A DNA stretch of 64,000 nucleotides from Amoebidium appalachense (Eukaryota > Protista > Ichthyosporea). The notes under the pieces are model-generated. The model did not search any database. It saw only the letters and a program-made list of their open reading frames with translations, and was not told where the DNA came from. Shown here piece after piece: positions 1 through 57,614 of the stretch. Location of the stretch: assembly GCA_963693365.1 (NCBI GenBank), contig CAVNZM010000013.1:1637817-1701816 (forward strand), in the 5' to 3' direction. How positions within the stretch are numbered: the first letter of the stretch is position 1; each line of letters starts with the position of its first letter. Position numbers and translations under genes: made by a program.

Positions 1-546
1 TGCGGCGCGCCGTCTCTGCCGTCGACGCGTAATTCTGGCCGGTGATCAAGCGCCCATCGACAACCGTATTTGGGGCATAAACCCCGAAAGCGATGTAATT
101 TGCGCCCATCTGTTTCAGTTTATCCTCCACCGTAAACGGGGTCTGAACGTACAGATTCCCGCGAATTTGGTCTTCGAAATTGCTCAAGCCGGTAACCCTT
201 TTCCCCTTAACAAGCATCTCGCCGTTGGACAAACGAATGCTCGTGAGCGCTCCCGACCCGTGGCACACAGAGCCAACCACGCCGCCGTTTTCGTAGACTT
301 TTGCGGAAATTCTTGCAAAAGTCGGGTTTCCGGCGACGTCAAACATTAACCCCGTACCTCCGGGGTAGAAAACGGCGTCGAAGGTTTGTGTTTCGGCCTG
401 GCTTGCGCTGATCGTAGTGCGCATGAGTTGCTGCGCCTCCGTGTCTGTTTGGAACTTTGTACAGTCGTCGTTTAGGGCGAACACCAACCTCTGAGGGCAG
501 AAATCGACGCTGAATGGCTCGACCTGTGATAAAAGAAAAAGAACAA

Positions 547-4725: not shown

Positions 4726-5211
4726 GAATTCAATAACCATATATGACTAGTAATGCCACGCTCTGCCGAGCTTTGGCTCAACGTCGAAGCGAGACGAGAA
4801 TATTCTGGAAGGCGCTGTGTGCGTGTGTGCCGTGTTGGAGGGAGGGCAGCAATTTGAAGGGGAAAAAAAAGGACTGTTTGGATATTTTTTTTTCTCTTTG
4901 TCTGTATCCTGCCTCCCCCCCCCCCCCCCCCCCCCCCCCCTTCCCCGCACCCCCCTTTTTTTCTCTCCCTCCCCCCTCCCCCCCCCCCTTCACTTCTGCC
5001 CCCACTCGCGGTCTTTTTCCCCTTTCTTCCCCCTCCTCCCCTTACTCTCCCTCCCCTTCCTCCCTCTGCCTTCCCATCTATTCCCCTTTTCTCCTCCTCC
5101 CCCCCCTTCCCCTCTCTCGTTTCCTCCCCCTCTGTTGGAAGATGGTATCGTTATCCAGTCCGATCGCATGAATCAGATCATGATCGGCTGGTGGCCTGCG
5201 AGATCTTAACC

Positions 5212-5284
5212 GATCTGTAGCTCAGTTGGTAGAGGCACTCGACCGGAGATAGAGGGGTCGCGGGTTCGAATCCCGTCGGGATCA
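5212..5284 (+). ncRNA. tRNA-like sequence in TRIM 5' LTR (anticodon position GGA; not a canonical tRNA)
   Basis: A box tagctcagttgg, B box ggttcgaatcc, acceptor gatct..gggatc, followed by T6. C at position 33, anticodon-stem mismatch and small indels. Confidence 0.7.
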
Positions 5285-5590
5285 TCTTTTTTCTCATCCT
5301 CTTCTCGCTGGGCCCGGGGTAAAAGCCAGCACGCCTTTACTGGCGTTACTATGATCACAACCATCGGCAGTGGTTAGGTTGTGATCTCAAGGCTAGCAAG
5401 ATCGCTAGTCTCTGCACCAGGACAAAATTCAATATGGTAGCATGAACAGGGGTTCAGTGGGGACTGAGGGGGCAGTCCACCCTAACCTGATTCTACGATT
5501 CGTCCTGAGTGGGGATGTTGGAAGATGGTATCGTTATCCAGTCCGATCGCATAGATCATGATCGGCTGGTGGCCTGCGAGGATCTTAACC

Positions 5591-5663
5591 CATCTCGTAG
5601 CTCAGTTGGTAGAGCACTCGATCGAAGATAGAGGGGTCGCGGGTTCGAATCCCGTCGGGATCA
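5591..5663 (+). ncRNA. tRNA-like sequence in TRIM 3' LTR (anticodon position GAA, Phe-like)
   Basis: catctcg tagctcagttggtagagc a ctcga tcgaaga tagag gggtc gcggg ttcgaat cccgt cgggatc a folds as a cloverleaf; T6 follows. Confidence 0.7.
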
Positions 5664-5891
5664 TCTTTTTTCTCATCCTCTTCTCGCTGGGGTAAAAGCC
5701 AGCACGCCCTTTACGTAATACTGGCGTTATCACAACCATCGGCAGTGGTTAGGTTATGATCTCAAAGCTAGCAAGATCGCTAGTCTCTGTACCAGGACAA
5801 AATCCAATACCCTCCCCCCTTTTTTTGTGTATGTATGTATGTTTGGCTGGCCCCAAATTTACCCAGAGAGAGAGAGAGAGAGAGAGAGAGT

Positions 5892-40197: not shown

Positions 40198-40285
40198 ACA
40201 CACACACGCACACACACACAAACATACAAATCACGACCCCCCCCCTCCCCCCCCCCCCCCCCCCCCCCCCACACACACACCCCAG

Positions 40286-40894
40286 TGTGGTATATTATAC
40301 CGGATATCTAGTATGGATGTACACAGGTTGAGATATACGCACACGTGTACATGTATATATACCACTGTGTTTGATCTTAGGTAGGCCAGTATGCATGTCT
40401 CCCCCCAGTCTTGTGCGCATGAGCAAGAAGTTAAACATATGTGCACGTGCAGCTTGCAGAACTATTCATGGGAAAACAGATATAATAGTCACATGGGACC
40501 GACACGTAGTAGAGGAACCATGAGCGTTAAGTTATAGTTTTATCATGGGAAAATATGCAAGTAGCCGTGAGGTATGACTGTGGAATGCATCGATAGTCAA
40601 GTACTGTCACCCGATTGGCTCACTAAGTTTATTGGAACCGTGATAGCCATGGGACAGAACCGTGAACCGTATGTGATTGGCTCGTAGCCAAAAAGCACAT
40701 ACCGATGCGCATGTCTGAGCCGCTGTGCGAGCTCCGATATAAGGGCATGTCGGGGGCTTCAGAGCTCACTCAGTGTGCTCGGCTTACTAGGTGTAAGTAG
40801 GACTAGCACGTAACTAAGCAAAGCGTGGTCTAATCAACCCCGTTCATTTATAAACATATTGTTTGTCACAGACACACGATCATATTATACAACA
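40286..40894 (+). repeat. 5' LTR of chromovirus (TATA-like tataag at ~40738)
   Basis: Identical to 47403-48011 except for two substitutions seen by eye (taatc/tagtc and cattat-type atatta/atagta). Confidence 0.95.
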
Positions 40895-40910
40895 GCTGAG
40901 CTACACCCCC
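40895..40910 (+). promoter_or_regulatory. Atypical primer-binding site
   Basis: gctgagctacaccccc directly follows the LTR. It lacks the TGG start; its reverse complement gggggtgtagctcagc is a tRNA-Ala-type 5' end. Confidence 0.7.
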
Positions 40911-41690
40911 TGCAGCGCTAGTTCTTGCGCTGCAAGTGTGCTCGTATCAAGCAAGTACTATGTTTTTAGTTGTTTGGGTTCTAACATGTCTAACCACCTT
41001 GGTGACGACAATGCCGGCCCTAGCGGCCTGCATGGGGGGGAAGCTAGAAACGCCGACCTCATTTTCCTTGAAGAACTCGGCTATAATGTTCCCCTCTCCC
41101 CCCCCCGGCGCTTCACCGTGGCACCCTCCTGGAGCAGACATTCCGTTGCTCGACCGTGTCTACTTTCGTTCACACGACTTGCAACACGACAATCAATACT
41201 GCTTCTCTTTTCGTTCAGGGGAAACCGACTACGGCCAATCATTTGACCCCGAAGACCTGCCACCTGAGGACAATCGACATTCATCAGTCGACCTTCTCCA
41301 CGGGCTGGAAGTCGAGGTCAACGCGAACGCAAGCAGAGGCACCAGACGCCCTGGTACGCGCCCTAACGGAGTATGCAAATTTGCACAACAAGACGGGCGT
41401 GAGCCTGGCAGCTTGGTGCTGGTGCGTTCTTGGGTGTCTCCTTCTGTTCATGCTGCTGGCATTGTTGGTATCGAAGTTTGCCAGCTGTACAGCGCGCACG
41501 GCACTGTACCGTTCGTCGTCGGCACTCACCATGCTCCACCAACAACTACTCGCCCTCGCGAATGTATTCACTTCCAGGCAAAACTACGCGTGCCTTTCAG
41601 GGCAGTCTTCCCACATCACTAAGTCACATGAATTTATCAATCAGTTAGTGGCTCTTAGTCGTGGTGAGCTCGACCTAGTGGTTACTTATT

Positions 41691-42866
41691 ATGGTAACCG
41701 GGGCCCTCGAAAATTTCATCCAAGCATGCTCCCCTCGTGGGTTCGTGCCGGACGGGGCCCCCGTAAGAACTCTGGCCGAGGTGGTAGGGGTGGGCGTGGT
41801 GGTGGCCGGGGGGGGGCATAACAACCCCCCTCCTGCTGCCAACGAAAATGGGGATGGTAATTCAGGTGGCGGCGCCCCCCCACCTCCCCCGGACGGTGGT
41901 GCTGACGGTGGTGCCGGTGGTGCTAATGGTGCCGGAGGTGCTAACGGTGCTGGTGGTGCCGGTGGTGGTGGTGGTGATGGCGGTGGCGACGGCGGTGACG
42001 GTGGTGATGACGGTGACGGTAACGACGGCAACGGTGACGACCGGGAGGGGAAGGAAAAGATTCAACACATCCCCTCAGCAGCAATTCAGTCCCGTCCTAT
42101 GCTCGAGGCAGATGCCGATATCGACGAATTCTACAAACAACTCCAACATCATTTGATTTTCTTTTGTATTATGGAGTTGGTGGGCTTAAATCGCACATTG
42201 ATGTTTATTCGTATGTGCATGGGCCCCGGGGACCCCCGAGATGCTGCCGATAACGTCGACCTTTCCACGTGCACCGGCATCGACGATTTTTGGGCTAAGT
42301 TCCTTGAGAAGTATTTAGACAAGGAACGTAAGGAGGAGCATTTAGACGAGCTGAACAAGCTTCGTTTTATGCACACTCGGGCCTCGATAAAGACATTCCA
42401 CAAGAAATTTAATCGCATCGTCTCCAACACGGGTCTCAAGAACATGCCCGAGGTTGTGCTTCATCATTACCAACGTACCCTCAACGACTACCCGGACCTT
42501 TGTTCGGAGGCCCGGGCTGCCACCACCCTCAAGCAAGCCATGGCCCGTGTCATCCGACGGTATGAGGCTGATGTGGGTGCTCACAATTTAAAATGTAACC
42601 GTAATGTGGGTGCTGTAGATGAGATGGGTGGTGGTAGTGGGGGGCATGGTGGTGGTGGTGGTGGTCACGGGGGTGGCCACGGAGGTAGTGGGGGTAATGT
42701 TGGTGGTAAGGGTAAATCTAATGGGGGAGGTAAATGGGCTAAGGAAGATAAAAAGAAAGATAAGAGGGGGCCCAATTGTTGGGCATGCAAGCAGCCGGGG
42801 CATCGTTTTAAAGATTGCCCCACCCGAGCTGCCAAGAAGAACAAGGGCAAGCAAAGTGAAAAATAG
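41691..42866 (+). CDS. gag: Gag (capsid-like region plus CCHC zinc knuckle); true start may be upstream at ~40987 via frameshifts
   Basis: CWACKQPGHRFKDC knuckle; DDFWAKFLEKY and SIKTFHKKFNRIV resemble retrotransposon gag motifs; Gly-rich linkers. Confidence 0.85.
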   Translation: MVTGALENFIQACSPRGFVPDGAPVRTLAEVVGVGVVVAGGGHNNPPPAANENGDGNSGGGAPPPPPDGGADGGAGGANGAGGANGAGGAGGGGGDGGGDGGDGGDDGDGNDGNGDDREGKEKIQHIPSAAIQSRPMLEADADIDEFYKQLQHHLIFFCIMELVGLNRTLMFIRMCMGPGDPRDAADNVDLSTCTGIDDFWAKFLEKYLDKERKEEHLDELNKLRFMHTRASIKTFHKKFNRIVSNTGLKNMPEVVLHHYQRTLNDYPDLCSEARAATTLKQAMARVIRRYEADVGAHNLKCNRNVGAVDEMGGGSGGHGGGGGGHGGGHGGSGGNVGGKGKSNGGGKWAKEDKKKDKRGPNCWACKQPGHRFKDCPTRAAKKNKGKQSEK

Positions 42867-45800
42867 GTAATTGCCGGTGCTGAATGCACGGATACGGCAT
42901 GTATTGCACATTGTGACCCAGTGGGTCACGAAAAAGTAATTAAAAATGTGCCTATACCACGTGCTTCTGCCCCGGCTTCTTCCGATATTCCCCCCTCCGA
43001 GCCCCCTTCCCCCGACCCCCGACCCCCCACCCCCCCACACCTATCCCCCCCCACAAAGAAACTTCGAACACTCGATAGAATAAGAAAAGTGTTCGATATA
43101 AGTGCCATATGCAATGCAGGAAGACGTATCTATGTTAATGTTACGTTGAGTAATGAAAAATACTTTGCATTGTTTGACACTGGGGCATCATTCACGGTGG
43201 TTAGTGAAGCTGTTTTTTCCCGACACATGCAGGAGTTTGCTTTGCAACCCTCGGATGTGATTGTTACTTCTGTAAGGAAAAACGATAAAGCTCTAGCTGT
43301 GAGTGGTGAAGTAATGCTCCCGTTATGCCTCGGTTCTCAAACATTCATGTGGCCTTGCTTAGTAATTAAAAATATTAAGCATGACATGATTATTGGGAAC
43401 GATTTTGCCAACAAACACATTGCCACCACTAATCATCAAGCACACTCACTAACACTGGTGTCGGCAATGGTGGTGCCGACGTCATCTTTGCACACCCCCT
43501 ACACAATGTGTCCTGTTACCGTCAAGCACGACACCACCGTCAAATCTGGCTTTGGATGTGTATTACGTGCAACGGTGCAAGTGACTGCTGCTGCTGCTGC
43601 TGCTGGCACCCTCGGTATCTTCGAGCCTACTCGTGAATTTCGAGATAAGTTCCCCCCCACCATCTGTGAAATTAGTGTGGATAAATCTATTGCTGTTGTG
43701 TGCGAAAATGGTGTGGGTCCGGATTTGAACGTGTTCGGTACCATCGGTCATTTCGTTCCTACGAGCCGACATGAGTACATACACGAACTGAGTGTTTTGC
43801 AAGCCGAACCCCACCCCAGTCGTACACAAACCGTCGTTGGTGCAATAGCGCAGTGCATCAGGTGGGCAACGGGGGGTGGAGAAGGTTGCCTACCCAATTC
43901 ACCTCCGGCCGTGCCACCGGGCCGGGTGCCTACCGATAACATGTGTGGGCACAAAGGGCATGTAAGTGGGACACGAGGCGGTCCGATACACTCACCGATC
44001 GACCAATCAATGTGTGCCGTTGATCATGAAAAACCCCCCCGCGAAAAATTTCGGAAATTTCGGGTGGGGGTGCACACGATGCCGGCCAGGCTCCCCACGG
44101 TTTTGATTGGAATAGGGTGCCTCAGAGTATGCTTCCGGATGTCAAGAAACTATTAGAAGCACACGCTCGTTGCTTCATCACTACGGACCCCGACGAATTT
44201 CCTCAGATTAAAGGATTCACCATGCACATAGACACGGGAGATAACCCACCGATTCGATTAAAACAGTGGAGGTTGGAACAAGTGAAAGAGCAGGCTGCAA
44301 AGGAGATCGTGGAGGATATGTGTCGTAGAGGGCAGATGGAACAAGCACACAGTCAGTATAATTCACCCACCTTCGTAATACGAAAACCAAACGGAAAATA
44401 CCGTCTCCTGACTGATTTTCGTGCTCTTAACAAGCAAATTCGAAAATCTGCCTGGCCCATGCCCAACTTGCAACAACAAATAGAGAAGTTGGCTGGGTAT
44501 AAGTATTTCTGTAAAGCTGATATGTCGGGTGCCTTTTACCAAATACTGCTAGACGCTGAGTCACGTGAAAAAACAGGATTTTCTGTGGCTGGTGTGCAGT
44601 ATCGTTATTGTGTGGCACCACAGGGGCTAAGTACTTCCCCGTCCCAGCTAGCATCTATCATGACACAGATTTTGGCCCCTCTGGCCGATGACGTGGTGGT
44701 ATATGCCGATGATTTAGCTGTGGGTGCACACACCGAAAAAGAATTAATACAGAAGCTTGACCGACTTTTCACCCGTCTCGGTGAATATGGAGTTAAGCTC
44801 GATGGGGCAAAGACATACATTGGGCTCACGGAAATACCGTTTTTGGGTTGGATTGTAGGTGTGAATGGCATTCGGCCCGACCCGAAAAAGGTTCAGGCAG
44901 TGAAAGATTGGCCGATACCAAACACACTACATCAACTCCGGGGTTTTCTGGGTATTACTTCGTATCTCCGCCGTCACATTTTAAATTATGCAGAGCGAGC
45001 CCGGCCCATGAATGCCGAGTGTTACGGAGAAAAACACCGACGGTTAAAATGGACGGACGAATTAGATCGCTCGTTTAAAGATTTAAAATCGGCGTTATCA
45101 GAGGAAGTGCTTGCCCTGCCCGATCTTTCCCCCACGGGGGGCCAGTTTCTTATTCGTTGTGATGCTAGTCGGTTCTCGGAAGGGGCTTGCCTGTATCAAA
45201 AACAAAAAGATGGCAAGTTCCGCACGGTGGCATATGCCTCCCGGATGTTTCAACCTACCGAACGTAGGTGGAGCAACATCGAACGAGAAACGCATGCAAT
45301 CTATTGGGCACTGAAAGAGTTTAGGGTGTACGTGTATGGTCGAGTGAATACTATTGTGGAAAGTGACCATAAGCCCTGTCTTTCTCTTAAAGGTGTCAAA
45401 CGGATAGCAAACGAACGGATGCAACGGTGGGCTTTGGAAATGCAGGAGTATGATTTCGATCTATACTACCGTCCTGGCCCTACCATGCACGATGCTGATG
45501 GGTTAAGCCGTATAGGATATATTCTGCATGAGAACGAAAACATACCACTGGAAAAGTGGGATGTGAAAAAGGAATTACAAGAGGTTCTCACAGCAGATTT
45601 ATCCGAGCTTAGCTCGAAACCAGCCGAAGTGTTTGTTGATTGGGGTGATGCACTCGAATTCACACATATTTTCGATCCAGACCGCTTGAAATGTGCACAA
45701 ATTTCTGCACTCAGTCAAGCCGGCCTGCCCTCCCTTTCTGCACTCGGTGGTGCCGGCTACCAGAAGGAAGCAATTATGATGGCACAGGGGGGGGACAAAA

Positions 45801-47362
45801 TGTGTAAGGATATAATCACGTGGCTCCGGTGGCTTGCCTCCCTCGATGCCGAGGCCAAACGGGAATGGCAGGCAGGGGGGGGACGAGCTGCACACGGTCT
45901 TAATCTTGAGTATTTCGGATACAAAAAGGTTAAGAAAATAGCACAAATGTGTGTGATAGAGGATGACGTGCTTTATCATGTGGCTAAGGATGGTCGTCGT
46001 TGCCTGTATGTGCCCGAAATTCTTCGTGCTGATTTATTAAGAAGTGTGCACAACGGGGGGGCTCATACTGGCATTGAACGAACTTACGAAAGATTATACA
46101 ATTACTTATTGGCCACGCATGCACAAAGATATCACTGCTTATGTGAATGCCTGCACACAGTGCCAAGGCCGTAACGATAACCCACACTTGAGAAGTAGGC
46201 CATTTGAACAGAGATACGAAAATTTAAAAATGTTCTCTCGTGTTTCTGTTGACCTTATGGGTCCGTTCACAGAAACGAAAAATGGTAATACTTTCATTTG
46301 TGTGTTTATGGATATGGCAACGAAGTCTTTAATCACTGTGCCCATCCAATCTAAGCATGCCGTTAATGTTGCACATGCACTCATGAATGTAATTTGCTAT
46401 ATACACGGCCCCCCTCGTACACTCTTGAGTGATCAAGGATCAGAATTTCTCAATGAGCTAATTGTTGAGATTTGCCGTATAGCAAATATTGCACAAGTGA
46501 GCACCTCTGCATATCACCCACAAAGCAACGGTTCCAATGAACGGTCTCATAGATTTATTAATAATGCACTCTCAAAGTACGTTAATTATGAGCACACTAA
46601 TTGGGACACTCTGTTGCCGATGGTTACACATGCATACAACACAACAACACACAAAATTTTGCAATGTACACCGTATTATCTTGTGTACGGGCAAGAAGCA
46701 ACACAATTCCCTGACGTTGCCCTTCTTAGCAGTAACCACCCGGCACTCAAGGACCCAGAGTGGAAGGCATACCGGCGAGAGTTACTAGCCCGTCTGCCTC
46801 TGCTCCGTGCTGTGGTCGGCAGCAACGTGCCGTACGAGAGCCCCCAGGCCCCTCGGTGGCTCGTGAATTTAAGAAGGGTGCACGGATTCGTGTTCGGAAT
46901 CAAGCCAAAAATATCGGTGCCTGGGATGTACGGTGGATTACGGGTTACGAAATCGTCAAAAGGGTCGGCCCGGTCACGTACGAGATCCGAAGCTTAGCAA
47001 CTATGAAGAAATCTAAGTGGCACGTGGACGATATTCAGCTTGAATTGAGTGAGCAAAATAGAATTCGGCCTCAAGATCTCTCTCACCTCCCGGACACGGG
47101 CGATAGTCACAATTTCAACAAGGTTCTGCCGGACGAGTGGGTGGTGGAAAAGGTGCTTGACGTAAGAATTCAGAAACGGCGCAAGCAATCCACCCCTTAC
47201 AAGTGGTACCAGATCAAGTGGGCAGGCAAAGATGAATCATTCACCTCTTGGGAGTGTGAGAAAGACTTAGCCTGCCCGGACAAGATCCGAGAGTTCCACC
47301 AACGCAGAGGTGACCTTGCATCGTTCCACGGATACATTGACTCATTGTGTGGAGCATGGTGA
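42867..47362 (+). CDS. pol: Pol polyprotein (protease, RT, RNase H, integrase, chromodomain), split by ~3 frameshifts (~44035, ~46100, ~46820)
   Basis: PR ALFDTGAS and IIGNDF; RT YRLLTDFRALN, APQGL, YADD; RH CDAS, ERETHAI, ESDHKP; IN H-H-CC, SVDLMGP, SDQGSEF, YHPQSNGSNER; chromodomain EWVVEKVLDVR..YQIKWAG.DESFTSWECEKDL. Confidence 0.93.
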
Positions 47363-47402
47363 CGTATGTCGAGGACGACATACTTCTTTTTACGGTGGGG
47401 CG

Positions 47403-48011
47403 TGTGGTATATTATACCGGATATCTAGTATGGATGTACACAGGTTGAGATATACGCACACGTGTACATGTATATATACCACTGTGTTTGATCTTAGGTA
47501 GGCCAGTATGCATGTCTCCCCCCAGTCTTGTGCGCATGAGCAAGAAGTTAAACATATGTGCACGTGCAGCTTGCAGAACTATTCATGGGAAAACAGATAT
47601 AATAGTCACATGGGACCGACACGTAGTAGAGGAACCATGAGCGTTAAGTTATAGTTTTATCATGGGAAAATATGCAAGTAGCCGTGAGGTATGACTGTGG
47701 AATGCATCGATAGTCAAGTACTGTCACCCGATTGGCTCACTAAGTTTATTGGAACCGTGATAGCCATGGGACAGAACCGTGAACCGTATGTGATTGGCTC
47801 GTAGCCAAAAAGCACATACCGATGCGCATGTCTGAGCCGCTGTGCGAGCTCCGATATAAGGGCATGTCGGGGGCTTCAGAGCTCACTCAGTGTGCTCGGC
47901 TTACTAGGTGTAAGTAGGACTAGCACGTAACTAAGCAAAGCGTGGTCTAGTCAACCCCGTTCATTTATAAACATATTGTTTGTCACAGACACACGATCAT
48001 AGTATACAACA
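47403..48011 (+). repeat. 3' LTR of chromovirus
   Basis: Direct repeat of 40286-40894, followed by the TSD CCCAG. Confidence 0.95.
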
Positions 48012-49357
48012 CCCAGCGCCACACAAATCACAACCCCCCCCCCCCCCCCCCCCCCCTATCCCTGCTGCCGCCGCCGCCTCCAACCACACACGCGCACGTA
48101 CGCCCCGAGACTCCGAGGTTCATGGTTTTTTGTTCTCGAATGCACAATCAAAGTTTGCACTTCTTCCTTTCCCAACAACACCACCAGTAATGTGTGACCG
48201 CTTCCCATTCTGGCACGTTATTGTGCTCAGCCTGTTTTTGCACACAGAAGTAGCTTCTCTACCATTCCGCCAAAGACTAATACGTCACGCACCGCTCTCT
48301 TCTGCTCGTACTCGTCAATATAATAATACGTCATGACTGCTTCTCACCACCTACACCATTTTTTATTCCCTCGGATTGACAACTCCCAATATGCTTGCCA
48401 CTTGGTTTTTTAAACAATTTATTACTGAGCGCGAGCCCCCCTCCCCCCTTCCCCGTCTCCACGGCTGCTCTTTTTTTTCCCCAAAGCTATTTTATCTTTT
48501 TTATTTTTTTATTTTTTTTGCGTGTGTGCGTTGGGGGGGGGGGGGGGGGGGGGGGTTGCCTCTTGAGTATTATTAGTGGCGGGGATCTTATTGACGGATG
48601 GTACATGTGGCTGTCCTTTTCGCTGCAGCTGTTCTTTTCTCTATTTCGGGAAAGTTACTTTTTTTTAGGGTTTGCCATATTCGGGTAATTCATAGCACTG
48701 TGGACAGATATCTAGATGTGTGCGAGCGAAAATTGTACCATTCCTTTCCTGTTCCGGAATCTATTTTTTTTGAGTGGGTATTTCCCTTTCTAAAAGGAGC
48801 AGGGTGTACGCTGTCACATAAATAAACCATAGTGGCACTCGAAAACCCTCTGAGTGTATGCCTTAACTTAGTAATAACACAATGCAATATTTCACAGTGT
48901 ACCAAGTATGCAAGGCCGCTTCTGAAACAACTGGGAGCTGGTTGCCTACCGATGATCAGCTGCATAGTAAACCGACAAGTGTGTGCACATGTGTACTCAA
49001 TAAATTTTGCTGCACTACAAGCATGTTTCTCTCTGTTCTGTAGTTTCAGTGACCGTAAAAAAAAAAAAAGCCACTCCTCTCTTGTCGTCTGTGTTGAAAG
49101 GACAAAAAGGATGCCGGCCGTGCTCAACTTTTTTACTTTTTGATATGTATACCTGCATGTGTGCGAGTGTGCGCCCGTCAGCTTGTGTGTGTGTGTGATG
49201 TCTATACATATGTGCGTTCATGCGCGTGTGGTCGGGCGTTAACTCGTTAACTTTTAAATATGCAGTTTTGCGGGTGCATGTGTGTGTGTCTTCTATCCAT
49301 CGTGTGTGTGAGTACCAGCCTGGATCACCTACATGCATATTATGTTTGTCCTCTGCA

Positions 49358-49546: not shown

Positions 49547-49620
49547 GGCCGCGTGGCCAAATTGGATAAGGCACCTGACTACGGATCAGGAGATTGCAGG
49601 TTCGAGTCCTGCCGCGGTCG
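49547..49620 (+). tRNA. tRNA-Arg(ACG)
   Basis: ggccgcg tg gcc aaattggataa ggc a cctga ct ACG ga tcagg agatt gcagg ttcgagt cctgc cgcggtc g forms a full cloverleaf; T5 terminator immediately downstream. Confidence 0.96.
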
Positions 49621-51556: not shown

Positions 51557-52350
51557 ACCACACACACACACACACACTACTCACCAAGTGGCGAATGCCG
51601 TTGGCCGTGTGGTAGGTGAAGGGAAGAGCAAAAAAGAACTTTCCAGCGGTGGTGATCTCGGGGCTAAGGTTCGTCTCCTGGATAGAGGCACACACATCCT
51701 CCCACTTGGTGCCAGTGGCAACAACACCAATCGTCACACCGGAAATCACTGGAAAATGGGGACGAAAGGTGTAAGCAAAATAATACAAAACGATGAAAAC
51801 GGGGACAAAAGGGGTAAGCAAACCAATAAAACGTTGGAAATGAGGGGGAAAAAGGTAATCAAACCAATCAAACGTTGAAGATGCGAACAAAGGCAAACAG
51901 GCAAAAGTTCAAAATAGGGACACAAAAGAAGTAGACGTTGAAAATGGGACACGTCTATCAGTCACCCACAATCACCAAAAGACATCCTGGGAGGCGAAAA
52001 AAGAGAGGGGGGGGGGGAGGGGGGGGGGGGGGGGGGGGGGGGGGAGGGGGGGGGGGATCTATTATAGAGTACGAAGCACACATCCATAACGGACAACACA
52101 AAGCAGAGTGCAAATAACACAGACAGGAGTATGCATAGTAAGCAGCGCCCGTCCTCAGGCGGAGAGAGCGGGAGGGGAGGAGGAGGGGGAGAGGGGGCAG
52201 GGATTATGCATAGTTGATTTGTCATAAAATGTTTGGAGGCCGAACACCACTATTGAGTAGAGACACACTTAAAACAGTCACCATCCCACACAAGTCACAA
52301 AGGTAAGGAAAGAATATACGGACTACGGACCAACCGTTGTATGCCAATCA

Positions 52351-52383
<33 letters not shown>

Positions 52384-52592
52384 GCCCCCGTTAATAAAAA
52401 CGAATGTAATACGTGCACGATTGTAGCGTGTATTTGCTTTCTTATGCATGCAATGGCATGCACGCACAACATATAGCCATGCTCAGGGAGTCTTCCCAGC
52501 CCCCCCCCTCCCCCCTCCCCATCCCCTCGCAGAATTAGCCAATGCCAGAAAGTAGTAAGGAGAGGGAAACAGATGATAGATTAGCGTCAAAG

Positions 52593-52641
<49 letters not shown>

Positions 52642-55517
52642 ACCCATTCACCCAAAAAAAAAAACCCCCACTTCCCAGCTACAATATCACATCTCCAATG
52701 GGCACTTCGTACAATGACGGTTATGCAAGAGTCATAATAGGCACACATTCAGACAGGGCTAAGAAGTCTATGTGACACTATGTCCAATTGAAAACTCCAT
52801 CTCCTCCCCAATCCCCACCACACGCACACAGCACGGATAGAGATCCCTTTAAATGAAGTGACCTTAGAAAGGGAAGGGGATTGAGCCAATCTTACAATAT
52901 CCGTGTGCATGTGCATGTGCATGTGCATTCAAGATGACAACGCGAAAGATCCCAAGGAATGTGCATCAGCATTTAAAAGGGCCTATGTGAGCAATATGAG
53001 TGAAGTCACTCGTGTGTGTGTGCAGAGTGCATGTGCATGTGTGTGTGAAAGAGAGAGTAGTTGTGTTCATGTGTGCACCGGACTCACGGCATCACTTAAC
53101 CCAGATACACTCACGTGTCACCAGCCAAAAAGGTTGTCGTTGGTGGAAGAGAAGGGGGGGGGGGGGGGGGGGGGGGGAGGGGGGGGGGGAGGTAAAGAAT
53201 GTGTTGCAACTTCCGCTGTACACAATCACGACGCAAAAGACAACAAAACAGACTTTGGACAGTACACCGGGGGGGAGGATGGGGGGGGAGGGGGATGCAT
53301 ACGAAGGCCGAAACCGACGCCACTGATGCGGTGGCAAATGGAGAGCAGAGAGCTGATCTGGGGGGCATAGATGGACAGGTGGGGGGACATGGGCCGGTTG
53401 AGCCGGGCCTGCTTGGCAAAGAAGTTCTCCTTGGCTGCAGCCGTGCTCTGCCACTGCCTGTGTGTGTACGTGTACGTGTGAATGCACACATGTGTGTGTT
53501 TGTGTTTGTGCTTTCATGTTCGTGCGCGCGTGTGTTTGTTTGCTTGTTCTTTTTTCTTGTGTGCGTGTGTGTGTGCGTGTGTGTTTGTGTGCTTGCTCCT
53601 GGTGATGGCGGGTTTAGCATGTGTGGTGGTGGTGGTGGTGTGTTTGGTGGCGGAGGGGGGTATGTATGTGTGCGAGCAAAGGGGAGGGTGGTCAGCAATG
53701 GGTAAACACCTTGCGTGTGTGTGGCCTAAGCCTTGATGGGGAGGGGGGGGGGGGGGGGGGGGGGCTGCATAAGAGTGGCAAACACATGGAAGCAAGAATG
53801 TAACAACCACTAAACAAACAAGACAAAACGGAATCAGTACAGACGACAACGGAGGGGGGTGATTTGGGTGTGGGGTATTTCTTTTTTTGGGATTGGGCTG
53901 CACTTGAAGAAATTAACTATTTAGCCCCTCTGTATTTGAAAGAGCGGACGTGCCAATAGAAAGACAAGTAGTGTTATCGTAAATACTTTCCTCTTGATAT
54001 ATCTAAATGTGTTCATGCCACGGTGTTGAATAAGGTTTCACATTTTGCTCCGACCTTGGTTTGAGAATAAATCACAAGACCAGTAAGCGAAAGCAAGCAC
54101 ACAGCATGCACCAGAAACAAAGCCATCCTCTGGGGCGCAAGTGATCCACAGTTCGGACATCAGTGGAGTGGAACGAAGATTTCGAATGTGTTAAAGAGGG
54201 TCGAGGGCCGGGGGGGGCGGGGCAGAGAGAGGGGGAGAGAGAGAGGGAGGGAGAAGGGGCGGATGGGGGGAAGCGAGAGAAAGGGATGAGTGCGGGGCCT
54301 TCAGTCATGAACGTGAAAGGAAGGAAAAATGCCTGGAATGCGCGTATGTGATTAGGGCGAGAACGGGATGATGCCGTAGTAGAGTGTGTGTTCAGAGCCT
54401 CCATGGAAAAATAAGTGGCCAGAAAGCGTGCTGGACGACGGGGGGCTGACACAAGAGGAAAGGCGAAGATGATAAACACCCACACAAACGACATGCACAA
54501 GTGCAAATAACAGAGACATCAAAGGGAGAGACATAGGCCGAAGAATGACCGAAAGGAACGACAGGGGATATCACATTCAGCCACATTAGTGACATATGAG
54601 TTGTGTGTTACAGAAGCTACATAGAAGGGAGAGAGAAAAGGGGGTTAGAGAGACAGGGCTTCCGGAAGAAAAAAAAAACGCAGGGAAAAGAATAAAACGG
54701 GGGGGAAAAGGAAGTGTAAGAAACGTACTTGGGAACGACGGCCCTGCAGGAGAGGCGGGCACCTGCACCGAGGTTCAGGGCACCAACCCTGTCCAACCCC
54801 AGAACATGAGACGACATTCAGCATCATGAGCGAAACATGAAAGATTCATGTCAGGTCGGCTACAACCAGCTACCAACCTAAGTGCTTTAGCTCAAGAGTT
54901 CTTCGGTCTCCATTATTGCTAGTGGGTCACAACAAAAGGCCTCCCTACGTCTTACTCAGCGACCAAACCCCGTTCACGTGCACGCCAGGACAGAATAAAT
55001 GACCCACAATCCTGAAAATAGCCCCTTGCCCCCTCGCTCCCAGCCCCCAGCCCCCAAGGCATTCTTCAGTTGCCCCACATCCCTGCCGTCACAACACCAC
55101 CTTTGTACTACCGTGATAACAGAGAAAGTAGCACACGGATAGATGTTAAACGTCGTTTCCTCTTCCATACTCTAGTTTTCTTCCGTTAACACCTTGCGTC
55201 TCAATAACTGCCCAGATTGCTCGACCTCAATGTGCTCTATGATGGTTTACGTGATAAAAAATGGCGTGTAATAATAGAGCTGTCAGCTCTATAGTATATC
55301 CAATGAAAAAATGAATGCAGAGGGAGCTCATCGGAGTGTAATCGGCTGCTTTAGCCTTCACCTAGGCGTTTGTCCTTCTCTCGTGGACCATCACTGCTCT
55401 AGAATCTGCTGCATCAACTCCTTCATCCTCCGAAAAAAAAAACGCCTAAACCGCTATCATGTTCCGAGGTTTCTCTTGTGTAACTTGCCTGCTTGCGAGT
55501 CTCCCAGAGGCGAACAT
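50706..55517 (-). CDS. SDHC: Succinate dehydrogenase cytochrome b560 subunit (170 aa); exons 55489-55517, 54729-54788, 53303-53457, 51585-51748, 50706-50810
   Basis: Spliced CDS is 513 nt in frame: MFASGRLASRVGALNLGAGARLSCRAVVPK (mitochondrial presequence-like) ...LNRPMSPHLSIYAPQISSLLSICHRISG...PFTYHTANGIRHLFQD...LYKTGY. The first exon uses a GC donor and is the least certain. Confidence 0.92.
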
Positions 55518-56385
55518 TCTCGTATATAATGGTGGAGGGATGAGCCCAAAAAACGAAGAAAGGAGAACGAAACGTAGGCCGCAGGGAGGACTGAGGCAAC
55601 TGGAACGGACCGCGCCGCATTTGGACCGCATGTAAAAGCGACACTAGAGGGTATAAACCAATAGGAATCGCGTTTTAAGTTTTCAAAACTCCTTTCCGGG
55701 TGGTTTTTGAACCGGGCGCGTTTCGATTGGGCGACGATTCGTCAATTCGGAATTTGAAGTCTGTAAATAGTCTAACATGTTGATGACGTAGACAGGAACG
55801 GCTTTTCCGTATGTTGTTTGTAGAATAACACTATAAATATTTCGTGTAAAGGTGTATAGGTAGACTAACGGTAAAAAGCCACAACATGAAACGGTGAGAG
55901 CTTCCGGGAGGTGTCACTGAGCAGTCTGTTTGTTTCATGTTCATTGTTAGCCGAGGGATCACATGTTCTCGGAGCGCCTGAGTTGCCACATCTCCACGTG
56001 TAGAAGAGCATGAGGGAACGCATAATTATGTGTGTGACACTGTATGTGCGGTCGGCTGGCTGGGAGGAGAGGGAGGGGGGAGGGGAGGGGGGGGGGGAGG
56101 AGAGAGAAAGATAGAGGGGGGGGGGGGGGGGGGGGGGGATGCACGTGGAAGATTCAGCCTGCCTATGTAGTCAACTACGGACGGATCGGCGAGCACTGGG
56201 AAACCAGCTGAGCAACATAAAAAGCACCTACGATCTGCTTTCCGACCTGTGTAGACCGTTGTTTGCCTGTGCATGCCGTAAATGAGTGAGCGTGCAGATC
56301 CTCCCCCCCCCCCCCCCCTCTTCCCCCCCCCCCCGATTCTCCTCCTCCTCCCCCCCCCCCCCCTCCCTCCGCCTCCCCATCCCCC

Positions 56386-56666: not shown

Positions 56667-57614
56667 GGACAACCATCTCCGATAGCATTTGGCGATGTGA
56701 CTGTGACATTACATTGCGGCCCCACGTCAAGACACAGTAAGGTTGAAAATGAAAAATTGGAACGAGAGCGAATGATGGCGTAACCAGTAGAAGAGAAAGC
56801 TGAAGCGAATGGCAAAATATCTGTGTATGTGCGCCTGTGCTGGGGTTGGTTGGGGGGGGGGGAGGAGGGGTGGGAGGGCGGGGAAGGGAGGGGTAGGAGG
56901 TTTACGGACTGGGTAGAGGCTTCAAGTATGTATTGGCCCAATGGCTCGTTTTACTGTATGGCTTCTTGTGGGCCTGGTGCCCACCTATTGGCCACAGTGC
57001 AGAATAAGAAACTGAATAAAATAAAAAGAACGGAGAAAAACTATATGGCTATGTCTGTGTGTGTGTGGGGGGGGGGGGGGGGGGGGGGGGGGGAGGGCAG
57101 AGGTAATTTTTTTAAGAAAACCACACGGCCATCTAGAGAGTACACGGCCATCTAGAGACTCTCTAGATGGCCGTGGACAACCATCTCCGATAGCATTTGG
57201 CGATGTGACTGTCACATTACATTGCGGCCCCTCGTCAACACACAGTAAGGTTGAAAAATGAGAAAATGGAACGAGAGTGAATGGTGGCGTAACCAGTAGA
57301 AGAGAAAGCTGAAGCGAATGGCAAAATATCTGTGTATGTGCGCCTGTGCTGGGGTTGGTTGGGGGGGGAGGAGGGGTGGGAGGGCGGGGAAGGGAGGGGT
57401 AGGAGGTTTGCGGACTGGGTAGAGGCTTCAAGTATGTATTGGCCCAATGGCTCGTTTTACTGTATGGCTTCTTGTGGGCCTGGTGCCCACCTATTGGCCA
57501 CAGTGCAGAATAAGAAACTGAATAAAATAAAAAAAAACGGAGAAAAACTATATGGCTATGTCTGTGTGTGTGTGGGGGGGGGGGGGGAGGGGGGAGGGCA
57601 GAGGTAATTTTTTT
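56667..57614. repeat. ~445-bp tandem duplication (56667-57113 and 57175-57614) with a palindromic junction
   Basis: Near-identical copies beginning ggacaaccatctccgatagc; the spacer contains cacggccatctagaga-c-tctctagatggccgtg. Confidence 0.9.

Follow-up and report, generated by a model that had tools for sequence, protein, structure and literature searches.

A putative primer-binding site complementary to the 5' end of tRNA-Ala in a chromodomain-bearing Ty3/gypsy retrotransposon

The element and its surroundings

The window (the whole stretch of DNA analysed, 64 kb) contains a complete Ty3/gypsy LTR retrotransposon of 7.7 kb, whose coding part follows the order Gag-PR-RT-RH-IN-chromodomain (Table 1). 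It shows characters by which the group is recognized: LTRs with TG...CA ends, a target-site duplication, the order PR-RT-RH-IN, and a Ty3-like reverse transcriptase, for which the closest solved structure is that of Ty3 (E 4e-52). The two LTRs are identical in 608 of 610 aligned bases, differing only at 40833 and 40885; from this near-identity, the TG/CA ends, and the CCCAG found on both flanks, the insertion appears to be young and its edges exact. Within these edges lie five overlapping frames (Gag-like, protease, RT-RNase H, integrase, and a C-terminal part carrying the chromodomain). The Gag-like frame (41679-42866) has no match in Pfam; its look-alikes in a protein atlas are Gag/zf-CCHC clusters (0.93-0.94), which provide a lead only. 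Upstream of Gag, the leader (40900-41821) holds two open frames of about 240 codons each, with no match in Pfam.

Table 1. Features of the element, in window coordinates.
Feature	Position	Strand	Remarks
Left target-site duplication CCCAG	40281..40285	+	same 5 bases at 48012-48016
5' LTR, 609 bp, TG...CA	40286..40894	+	two differences from 3' LTR
TATA-like TATAAG, predicted promoter element	40738..40743	+	sequence; function inferred
Initiator-like TCAGT, predicted transcript start A40772	40770..40774	+	sequence, initiator consensus
Candidate self-primer or occluder	40772..40784	+	pairs with 40894-40906, one bulge, one G-U
Primer-binding site (putative)	40895..40910	+	40896-40910 = exact complement of tRNA-Ala nt 1-15
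Perfect 8-bp hairpin, 8-nt loop, directly 3' of primer site	40911..40934	+	
10-nt direct repeat of 40772-40781	40935..40944	+	second, downstream pairing partner for primer site
Gag-like frame with CCHC knuckle	41679..42866	+	
Aspartic protease frame	42867..44156	+	PF13650 E 2.7e-5
Reverse transcriptase + RNase H frame	44030..46174	+	PF00078, PF17917, PF17919
Integrase core frame	46041..46997	+	PF00665, PF17921
Integrase C-terminus with chromodomain	46736..47362	+	PF00385 E 1.6e-9
Short G-rich candidate polypurine tract before 3' LTR	47392..47402	+	sequence; function inferred
3' LTR	47403..48011	+	identity with 5' LTR stops at CAACA 40894/48011
Right target-site duplication CCCAG	48012..48016	+	

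The sequence-only reading of this locus had called the element a chromovirus. The label holds for the domain content, given the clear match to PF00385, and finds no support in the reverse transcriptase: in an RT-RH FastTree of 121 rows, which includes no named reference elements, the element occupies a long terminal branch (1.12) and falls outside the supported clade in which seven of the eight chromodomain-bearing matches are found; the best identity in the tree is 38%. The nearest proteins, among the matches listed, are 28-37% identical. The element is thus a chromodomain-bearing Ty3/gypsy whose RT this tree does not place in a clade, which weakens a claim of descent from Tf1/sushi. At what we take to be the aromatic-cage positions, by comparison to HP1, the chromodomain (46736-47362) has W in the first and the second, and apparently K in the third.

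The sequence around the element is microsatellite-rich eukaryote DNA with GT-AG introns. At its left end (2-376, minus strand) is a fragment of a DJ-1/PfpI-family gene; the window protein, at 418 aa, is nearly twice the usual length, and its relatives, among the matches listed, come mostly from bacteria or metagenomes, the chytrid ones being at 46-50%; the nearest that carry a name are chytrid and bacterial proteins (45-50%). An intron-split nuclear gene for succinate dehydrogenase subunit C (PF01127) occupies about 52000-55700 (minus strand); a search with its exon sequence returned no match. Furthermore, a direct repeat of about 450 bp (56667-57113 and 57175-57614; 95% identical, 61 bp apart) lies beyond it. 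A tandem repeat of about 300 bp (5133-5434 and 5516-5809; 90% identical) carries one tRNA-like unit per copy, followed by a T run; one of the units is called as tRNA-Phe(GAA), with a poorly paired acceptor stem, and the repeat possibly represents a SINE derived from a tRNA, or else an array of decayed tRNAs. A tRNA-Arg(ACG) gene is found at 49547-49620, 1.5 kb from the right end of the element, which is too distant to suggest targeting of tRNA genes. Insertion of the element into a tRNA gene was considered as well and rejected, the primer site being located inside the target-site duplication.

The primer site and its match to tRNA-Ala

Directly 3' of the left LTR, with zero spacer and at an edge fixed by the second LTR, lies GCTGAGCTACACCCCC (40895-40910). 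TGG is absent after the left LTR, so that this is not a canonical site for the 3' end (CCA) of a tRNA; as the sequence-only reading had proposed, the site is instead complementary to the 5' end of tRNA-Ala, 40896-40910 being the exact complement of nucleotides 1-15 of human tRNA-Ala(AGC). The reverse complement of these 15 bases, GGGGGTGTAGCTCAG, has a single occurrence in the 64-kb window, on the minus strand; none of 100 shuffles contains it. It is listed as the start of human tRNA-Ala(AGC) in a published table of tRNA fragments (tRFs; PMC6237853), and in human it is reported as common to Ala(CGC), Ala(TGC), and single Cys and Val isodecoders (PMC5318995). The match terminates exactly at tRNA nucleotide 1. 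Calculated from the base composition of the element, for 50-300 tRNAs and offsets of 0-3, the chance of such a match beside the LTR is 1.3e-7 to 7.9e-7 where a start at nucleotide 1 is required, and up to 4.9e-5 in any register.

Position 16 of tRNAs is usually a pyrimidine; G40895, which faces it, could pair with it as G-C or G-U. With a spacer of 0-2 bases, the primer would have a length of 14-16 nt and its 3' end in the D-loop. The site differs in this from those of half-tRNA elements (copia/Ty5), as the match covers nucleotides 1-15 and not the anticodon arm, in an element with the gypsy domain order; nor is it a polypyrimidine site of the Skipper type, being of mixed sequence with only five C's. 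The perfect 8-bp hairpin that had been reported directly downstream (40911-40934) is present, with a pair probability of 1.0, and is one of two perfect hairpins of at least 8 bp in the element (loops of 3-12).

The window itself contains no tRNA-Ala gene; the tRNA genes called over its 64 kb are Phe and Arg only, and a relaxed ARAGORN run gave mostly spurious calls. As stand-ins for host tRNAs, which they are not, we used 83 loci from viral contigs that carry the motif extended by a D-loop tail: at 72 of them the motif falls inside a called tRNA, and 62 of these 72 are tRNA-Ala with the motif at nucleotide 1. Pairing of a stand-in tRNA to the site can extend into the terminal CA of the LTR, to a total of 18 pairs.

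These data also bear on the identity of the partner. The 15-mer is shared by human Cys and Val isodecoders, 10 of the 72 viral-contig tRNAs are not plain Ala, and the tRNA-like tandem repeat in the window has 9-10 bases in common with it, so a different host RNA with the 3' end ...GUGUAGCUCAGC could be the partner, such as the transcript of a tRNA-derived repeat or a tRNA of another isotype; else the match could be coincidental. We consider this very improbable: coincidence amounts to at most about 5e-5, another isotype would change the name of the tRNA and leave the mechanism the same, and an Rfam search over LTR and leader (40200-41300) returned no structured RNA (best E 0.21).

Contigs from four public sequencing runs show that the element belongs to a multi-copy family with diverged subfamilies; some of the runs are possibly the source of the window itself, and do not count as independent support. 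The only change inside the site, among 40 listed of 163 substitution rows, is 40906 C>T, found in two of the four runs. With it, the site becomes complementary to GGGGATGTAGCTCAG, with which human tRNA-Ala(CGC) starts according to the published tRF table (PMC6237853). The change strengthens pairing with a tRNA of this GGGGA type (from -29.2 to -33.9 kcal/mol) and slightly weakens the self-pairing, where it is tolerated as a G-U (from -18.4 to -16.8 kcal/mol). As judged from sequence, the variant thus appears to track the other common 5' end of tRNA-Ala; it is one event, and lends modest support to a tRNA primer. The listed changes near the site comprise 40922 and a one-base gap at 40920, both in the loop of the hairpin, and 40935, beside its stem; the stem is spared. 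One run (X2) additionally yields loose ends that point to an internally deleted copy, in which 40911 is joined to about 43501 via a 9-nt microhomology; this copy has kept the LTR and the whole primer site and has lost the hairpin, and it is possibly a non-autonomous derivative of the family.

Pairing of the site with the element's own RNA

The sequence-only reading had also put forward, as a weaker option, that the element primes itself. The pairing invoked is there: GTGTGCTCGGC at 40773-40783, 35 nt after the TATAAG at 40738, is complementary to the site apart from one bulge and one G-U. The label 'weaker' undersells it, as it lies at the predicted transcript start and in the exact register of Tf1, and beats 1986 of 2000 shuffles. 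When the RNA is folded from 40772, GUGUGCUCGGCU pairs with the site and with the last base of the LTR, again with one bulge and one G-U, giving a duplex of 11-12 pairs at the predicted transcript start. By this reading, which follows Tf1, about 12 bases at the 5' end of the transcript (40772-40783) would fold onto the site and be cut off by RNase H, the resulting piece would act as primer, and the match to tRNA-Ala would be a relic, left either from an earlier, tRNA-primed stage or from a captured tRNA copy.

Several observations agree with self-priming. No segment of the LTR pairs better with the site than 40771-40785, and TCAGT, which conforms to the initiator consensus, is found at 40770, 34 nt after TATAAG. 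The 3' end of the self-primer faces the first base after the LTR, as it does in Tf1, where bases 1-11 of the transcript anneal to the site and RNase H cleaves between 11 and 12 (PMC7175516). The energy of the self-pairing, -17.7 kcal/mol, is equalled by only 14 of 2000 shuffled sites; its pair probability is 0.93-0.97 in folds that end at 40915-40960; and the element carries a chromodomain, as do Tf1/sushi elements. Against this, the pairing is interrupted by a bulge, includes a G-U, and does not account for four conserved-looking C's (C40907-C40910, which are paired by the tRNA and unpaired by the self-primer). The duplex is half as strong as the one with tRNA-Ala (-16.7 to -18.4 versus -32.5 to -35.9 kcal/mol), its pair probability falls to 0.13-0.17 once the fold reaches 41010, and five other places in the element pair with the site equally strongly. 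Tf1 is reported to require a 'pretzel' of three duplexes, two of them flanking helices (10.1101/2022.12.06.519325); here the flanking helices are absent, 75 to 237 of 500 shuffles being as good in six tests. The transcript start, furthermore, is predicted only, with TATAAA at 40849 as an alternative reading of the promoter; the reverse transcriptase does not group with the chromodomain-bearing matches; and a relic would not be expected to remain a perfect 15-mer. Taken together, these points make self-priming unlikely, though a rival of some weight.

A feature that had been overlooked is a repeat of the transcript's predicted first bases: AGTGTGCTCG at 40772-40781 recurs at 40935-40944, just past the hairpin. 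The site can pair with the upstream or with the downstream copy at near-equal energy, the differences being 1.1-3.1 kcal/mol, which in this folding model suggests a leader with two states, in which either copy of the repeat would mask the site.

On energetic grounds a tRNA should be able to take the site. Opening nucleotides 1-16 of the 48 stand-in tRNAs from viral contigs costs about 10 kcal/mol, and net of this cost their 5' ends pair at -26.1 kcal/mol, versus -24.0 for a canonical primer from the 3' end; modified bases and tertiary structure lie outside the model, and the 4-9 kcal/mol needed to free the primer site from the leader fold are not included in the net -26.

A leader that can switch between two folds that mask the site would also be compatible with a role of the tRNA, or of its 5' tRF, other than priming: it could bind the site for packaging, dimerisation, or host silencing, with another RNA or the self-primer providing the 3' end. 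In Arabidopsis, Gypsy transcripts are targeted by 5' tRFs, and a 19-nt tRF of Ala(AGC) builds up in pollen (10.1101/085043). The plant target described in that source, however, was not a primer site, and the match here sits exactly where a primer must end in order to set the LTR edge; a perfect silencing target, moreover, would presumably bring the element no gain unless the pairing were needed. A purely non-priming role therefore strikes us as improbable.

Proposed priming and comparison with known systems

The most plausible account, in our view, is that minus-strand DNA is primed by a 5' piece of host tRNA-Ala, 14-16 nt long and cut in the D-loop; we regard this as probable. It is preferred for a match that goes far beyond chance and a natural variant that matches a second tRNA-Ala 5' end. 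The original proposal of such a fragment is thereby supported in part, as a reading of sequence. A review notes for Ty1 and Ty3 that the site is inherited from the template and not from the primer (PMC7472051); if this applies here, re-copying from the tRNA does not by itself account for the perfect match, which would then indicate selection on the pairing and would still speak for a functional tRNA partner.

In the proposed mechanism, the host would carry a tRNA-Ala with a matching 5' end, whose 5' strand would invade the site as the acceptor and D stems open, and would oust the element's own RNA, which pairs there less strongly. The 3'-OH for extension would then come from a cut in the D-loop. 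This cut could be made beforehand by a host nuclease, yielding a ready-made 5' tRF (5' tRFs of Ala exist in plants; 10.1101/085043), or it could be made by the element's RNase H acting on the template-bound tRNA; the latter is slightly favoured, since an RNA paired at its 5' end and trailing a 3' tail is the type of substrate used by the RNase H of Tf1, and since the element bears, at its predicted start, an imperfect mimic of the tRNA 5' end. The self-pairing would be either a remnant of self-priming or a reserve for it, or would mask the site and keep it closed before the tRNA binds. By analogy, the system might be understood as Tf1 priming in trans, in which tRNA-Ala would dock intact, with its 5' end, and be cut in the D-loop by the element's RNase H; the imperfect self-primer would then mimic the tRNA 5' end, and the element would be a living intermediate between tRNA priming and self-priming. 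This last notion is a tentative one, possible and somewhat doubtful.

A second family with this site was not found in viral contigs and metagenomes when these were scanned for a pattern of LTR end plus site that excludes ordinary D-loops. The scan returned 129 loci (11 viral, 118 metagenomic), of which many are tRNA genes or coding DNA of bacteria; none of the 129 has a retroelement frame, as judged by comparison with the five proteins of the element and with 60 of its 120 listed homologs, for a scope of 32 of the 64 metagenome parts and with 49 of the 129 loci represented by 300-base flanks only. The element's reverse transcriptase, used as query, retrieved no relative from the viral contigs. 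In the literature searched, outside of which lie subscription papers and Repbase reports, priming from the first 15-16 bases of a tRNA or from the D-loop is not described; nothing on priming by the 5' end was found in a tRNA review (PMC7773854). Primer sites are not mentioned in the main texts on Capsaspora and Salpingoeca elements, and the site motif is absent from the searched supplement files of these papers, in which line breaks could hide it. For Cryptococcus Tcn2-5, 'potentially novel mechanisms of priming' have been noted.

A survey of plant elements recognizes three types of primer, namely the 3' end of a whole tRNA, a half tRNA cut in the anticodon, and a self-primer, with truncated tRNAs occurring in Ty1/copia lineages only (PMC6317226). 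If our reading is true, Ty3/gypsy priming by the initial 14-16 bases of tRNA-Ala would represent an additional mode beyond these three, and 5' tRFs would gain a role as replication primers. Annotation that checks the 3' ends of tRNAs only would miss such a site, so that elements recorded as lacking a primer site may include some of this sort. The sequence evidence, in sum, describes a real and unusual primer site in a young element of one family, which, if confirmed, would be a new variant of priming by tRNA fragments.

Among microbial eukaryotes, the elements Sroscv1-5 of Salpingoeca rosetta are likewise chromodomain-bearing Ty3/gypsy elements; unlike the present one, all five have TGGTAGCG within two bases of the LTR, a canonical 3'-CCA site (PMC6875170). 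Skipper of dictyostelids shares with the element the chromodomain, the absence of TGG, and a priming mechanism described as unsettled, but its site is a degenerate polypyrimidine tract with no known partner, whereas the site here has an exact partner in a tRNA (PMC5006619).

Further parallels exist in two groups. Half-tRNA priming, as in Drosophila copia, yeast Ty5, the plant elements Osser, Bryco, and Bianca, and fungal Copia and Helenus, employs, as is proposed here, a 3'-truncated tRNA and likewise dispenses with TGG (PMC6317226, PMC10886601). In these systems, however, the cut falls in the anticodon arm, the tRNAs are those for Met, Ile, Tyr, Asp, or Asn (Kojima, 2024, describes sites in fungal Copia and Helenus that match the anticodon loops of Tyr, Ile, Asp, and Asn tRNAs; PMC10886601), and the elements belong to Ty1/copia; the element described here would differ in a D-loop cut, in the pairing of the whole primer from nucleotide 1, in the use of Ala, and in belonging to Ty3/gypsy.

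The self-priming chromoviruses of the Tf1/sushi type, with Tf1/Tf2 and also Tj1, for which self-priming has been proposed (PMC4600332), resemble the element in being chromodomain-bearing Ty3/gypsy elements in which the site adjoins the LTR and lacks TGG. The likeness to Tf1/sushi would extend to the primer, which in both cases is the 5'-terminal segment of an RNA that needs a cut to obtain its 3'-OH, and in both a complement to the site lies near the (here predicted) transcript start. The element differs in that its perfect partner is the 5' end of a host-type tRNA, the self-complement being imperfect and the pretzel helices missing, and in that its RT finds no support for a place in that clade. 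Since a tRNA 5' end and the element's own 5' end can both pair with one and the same site, transitions between self-priming and tRNA priming, in either direction, can be tested on it directly.
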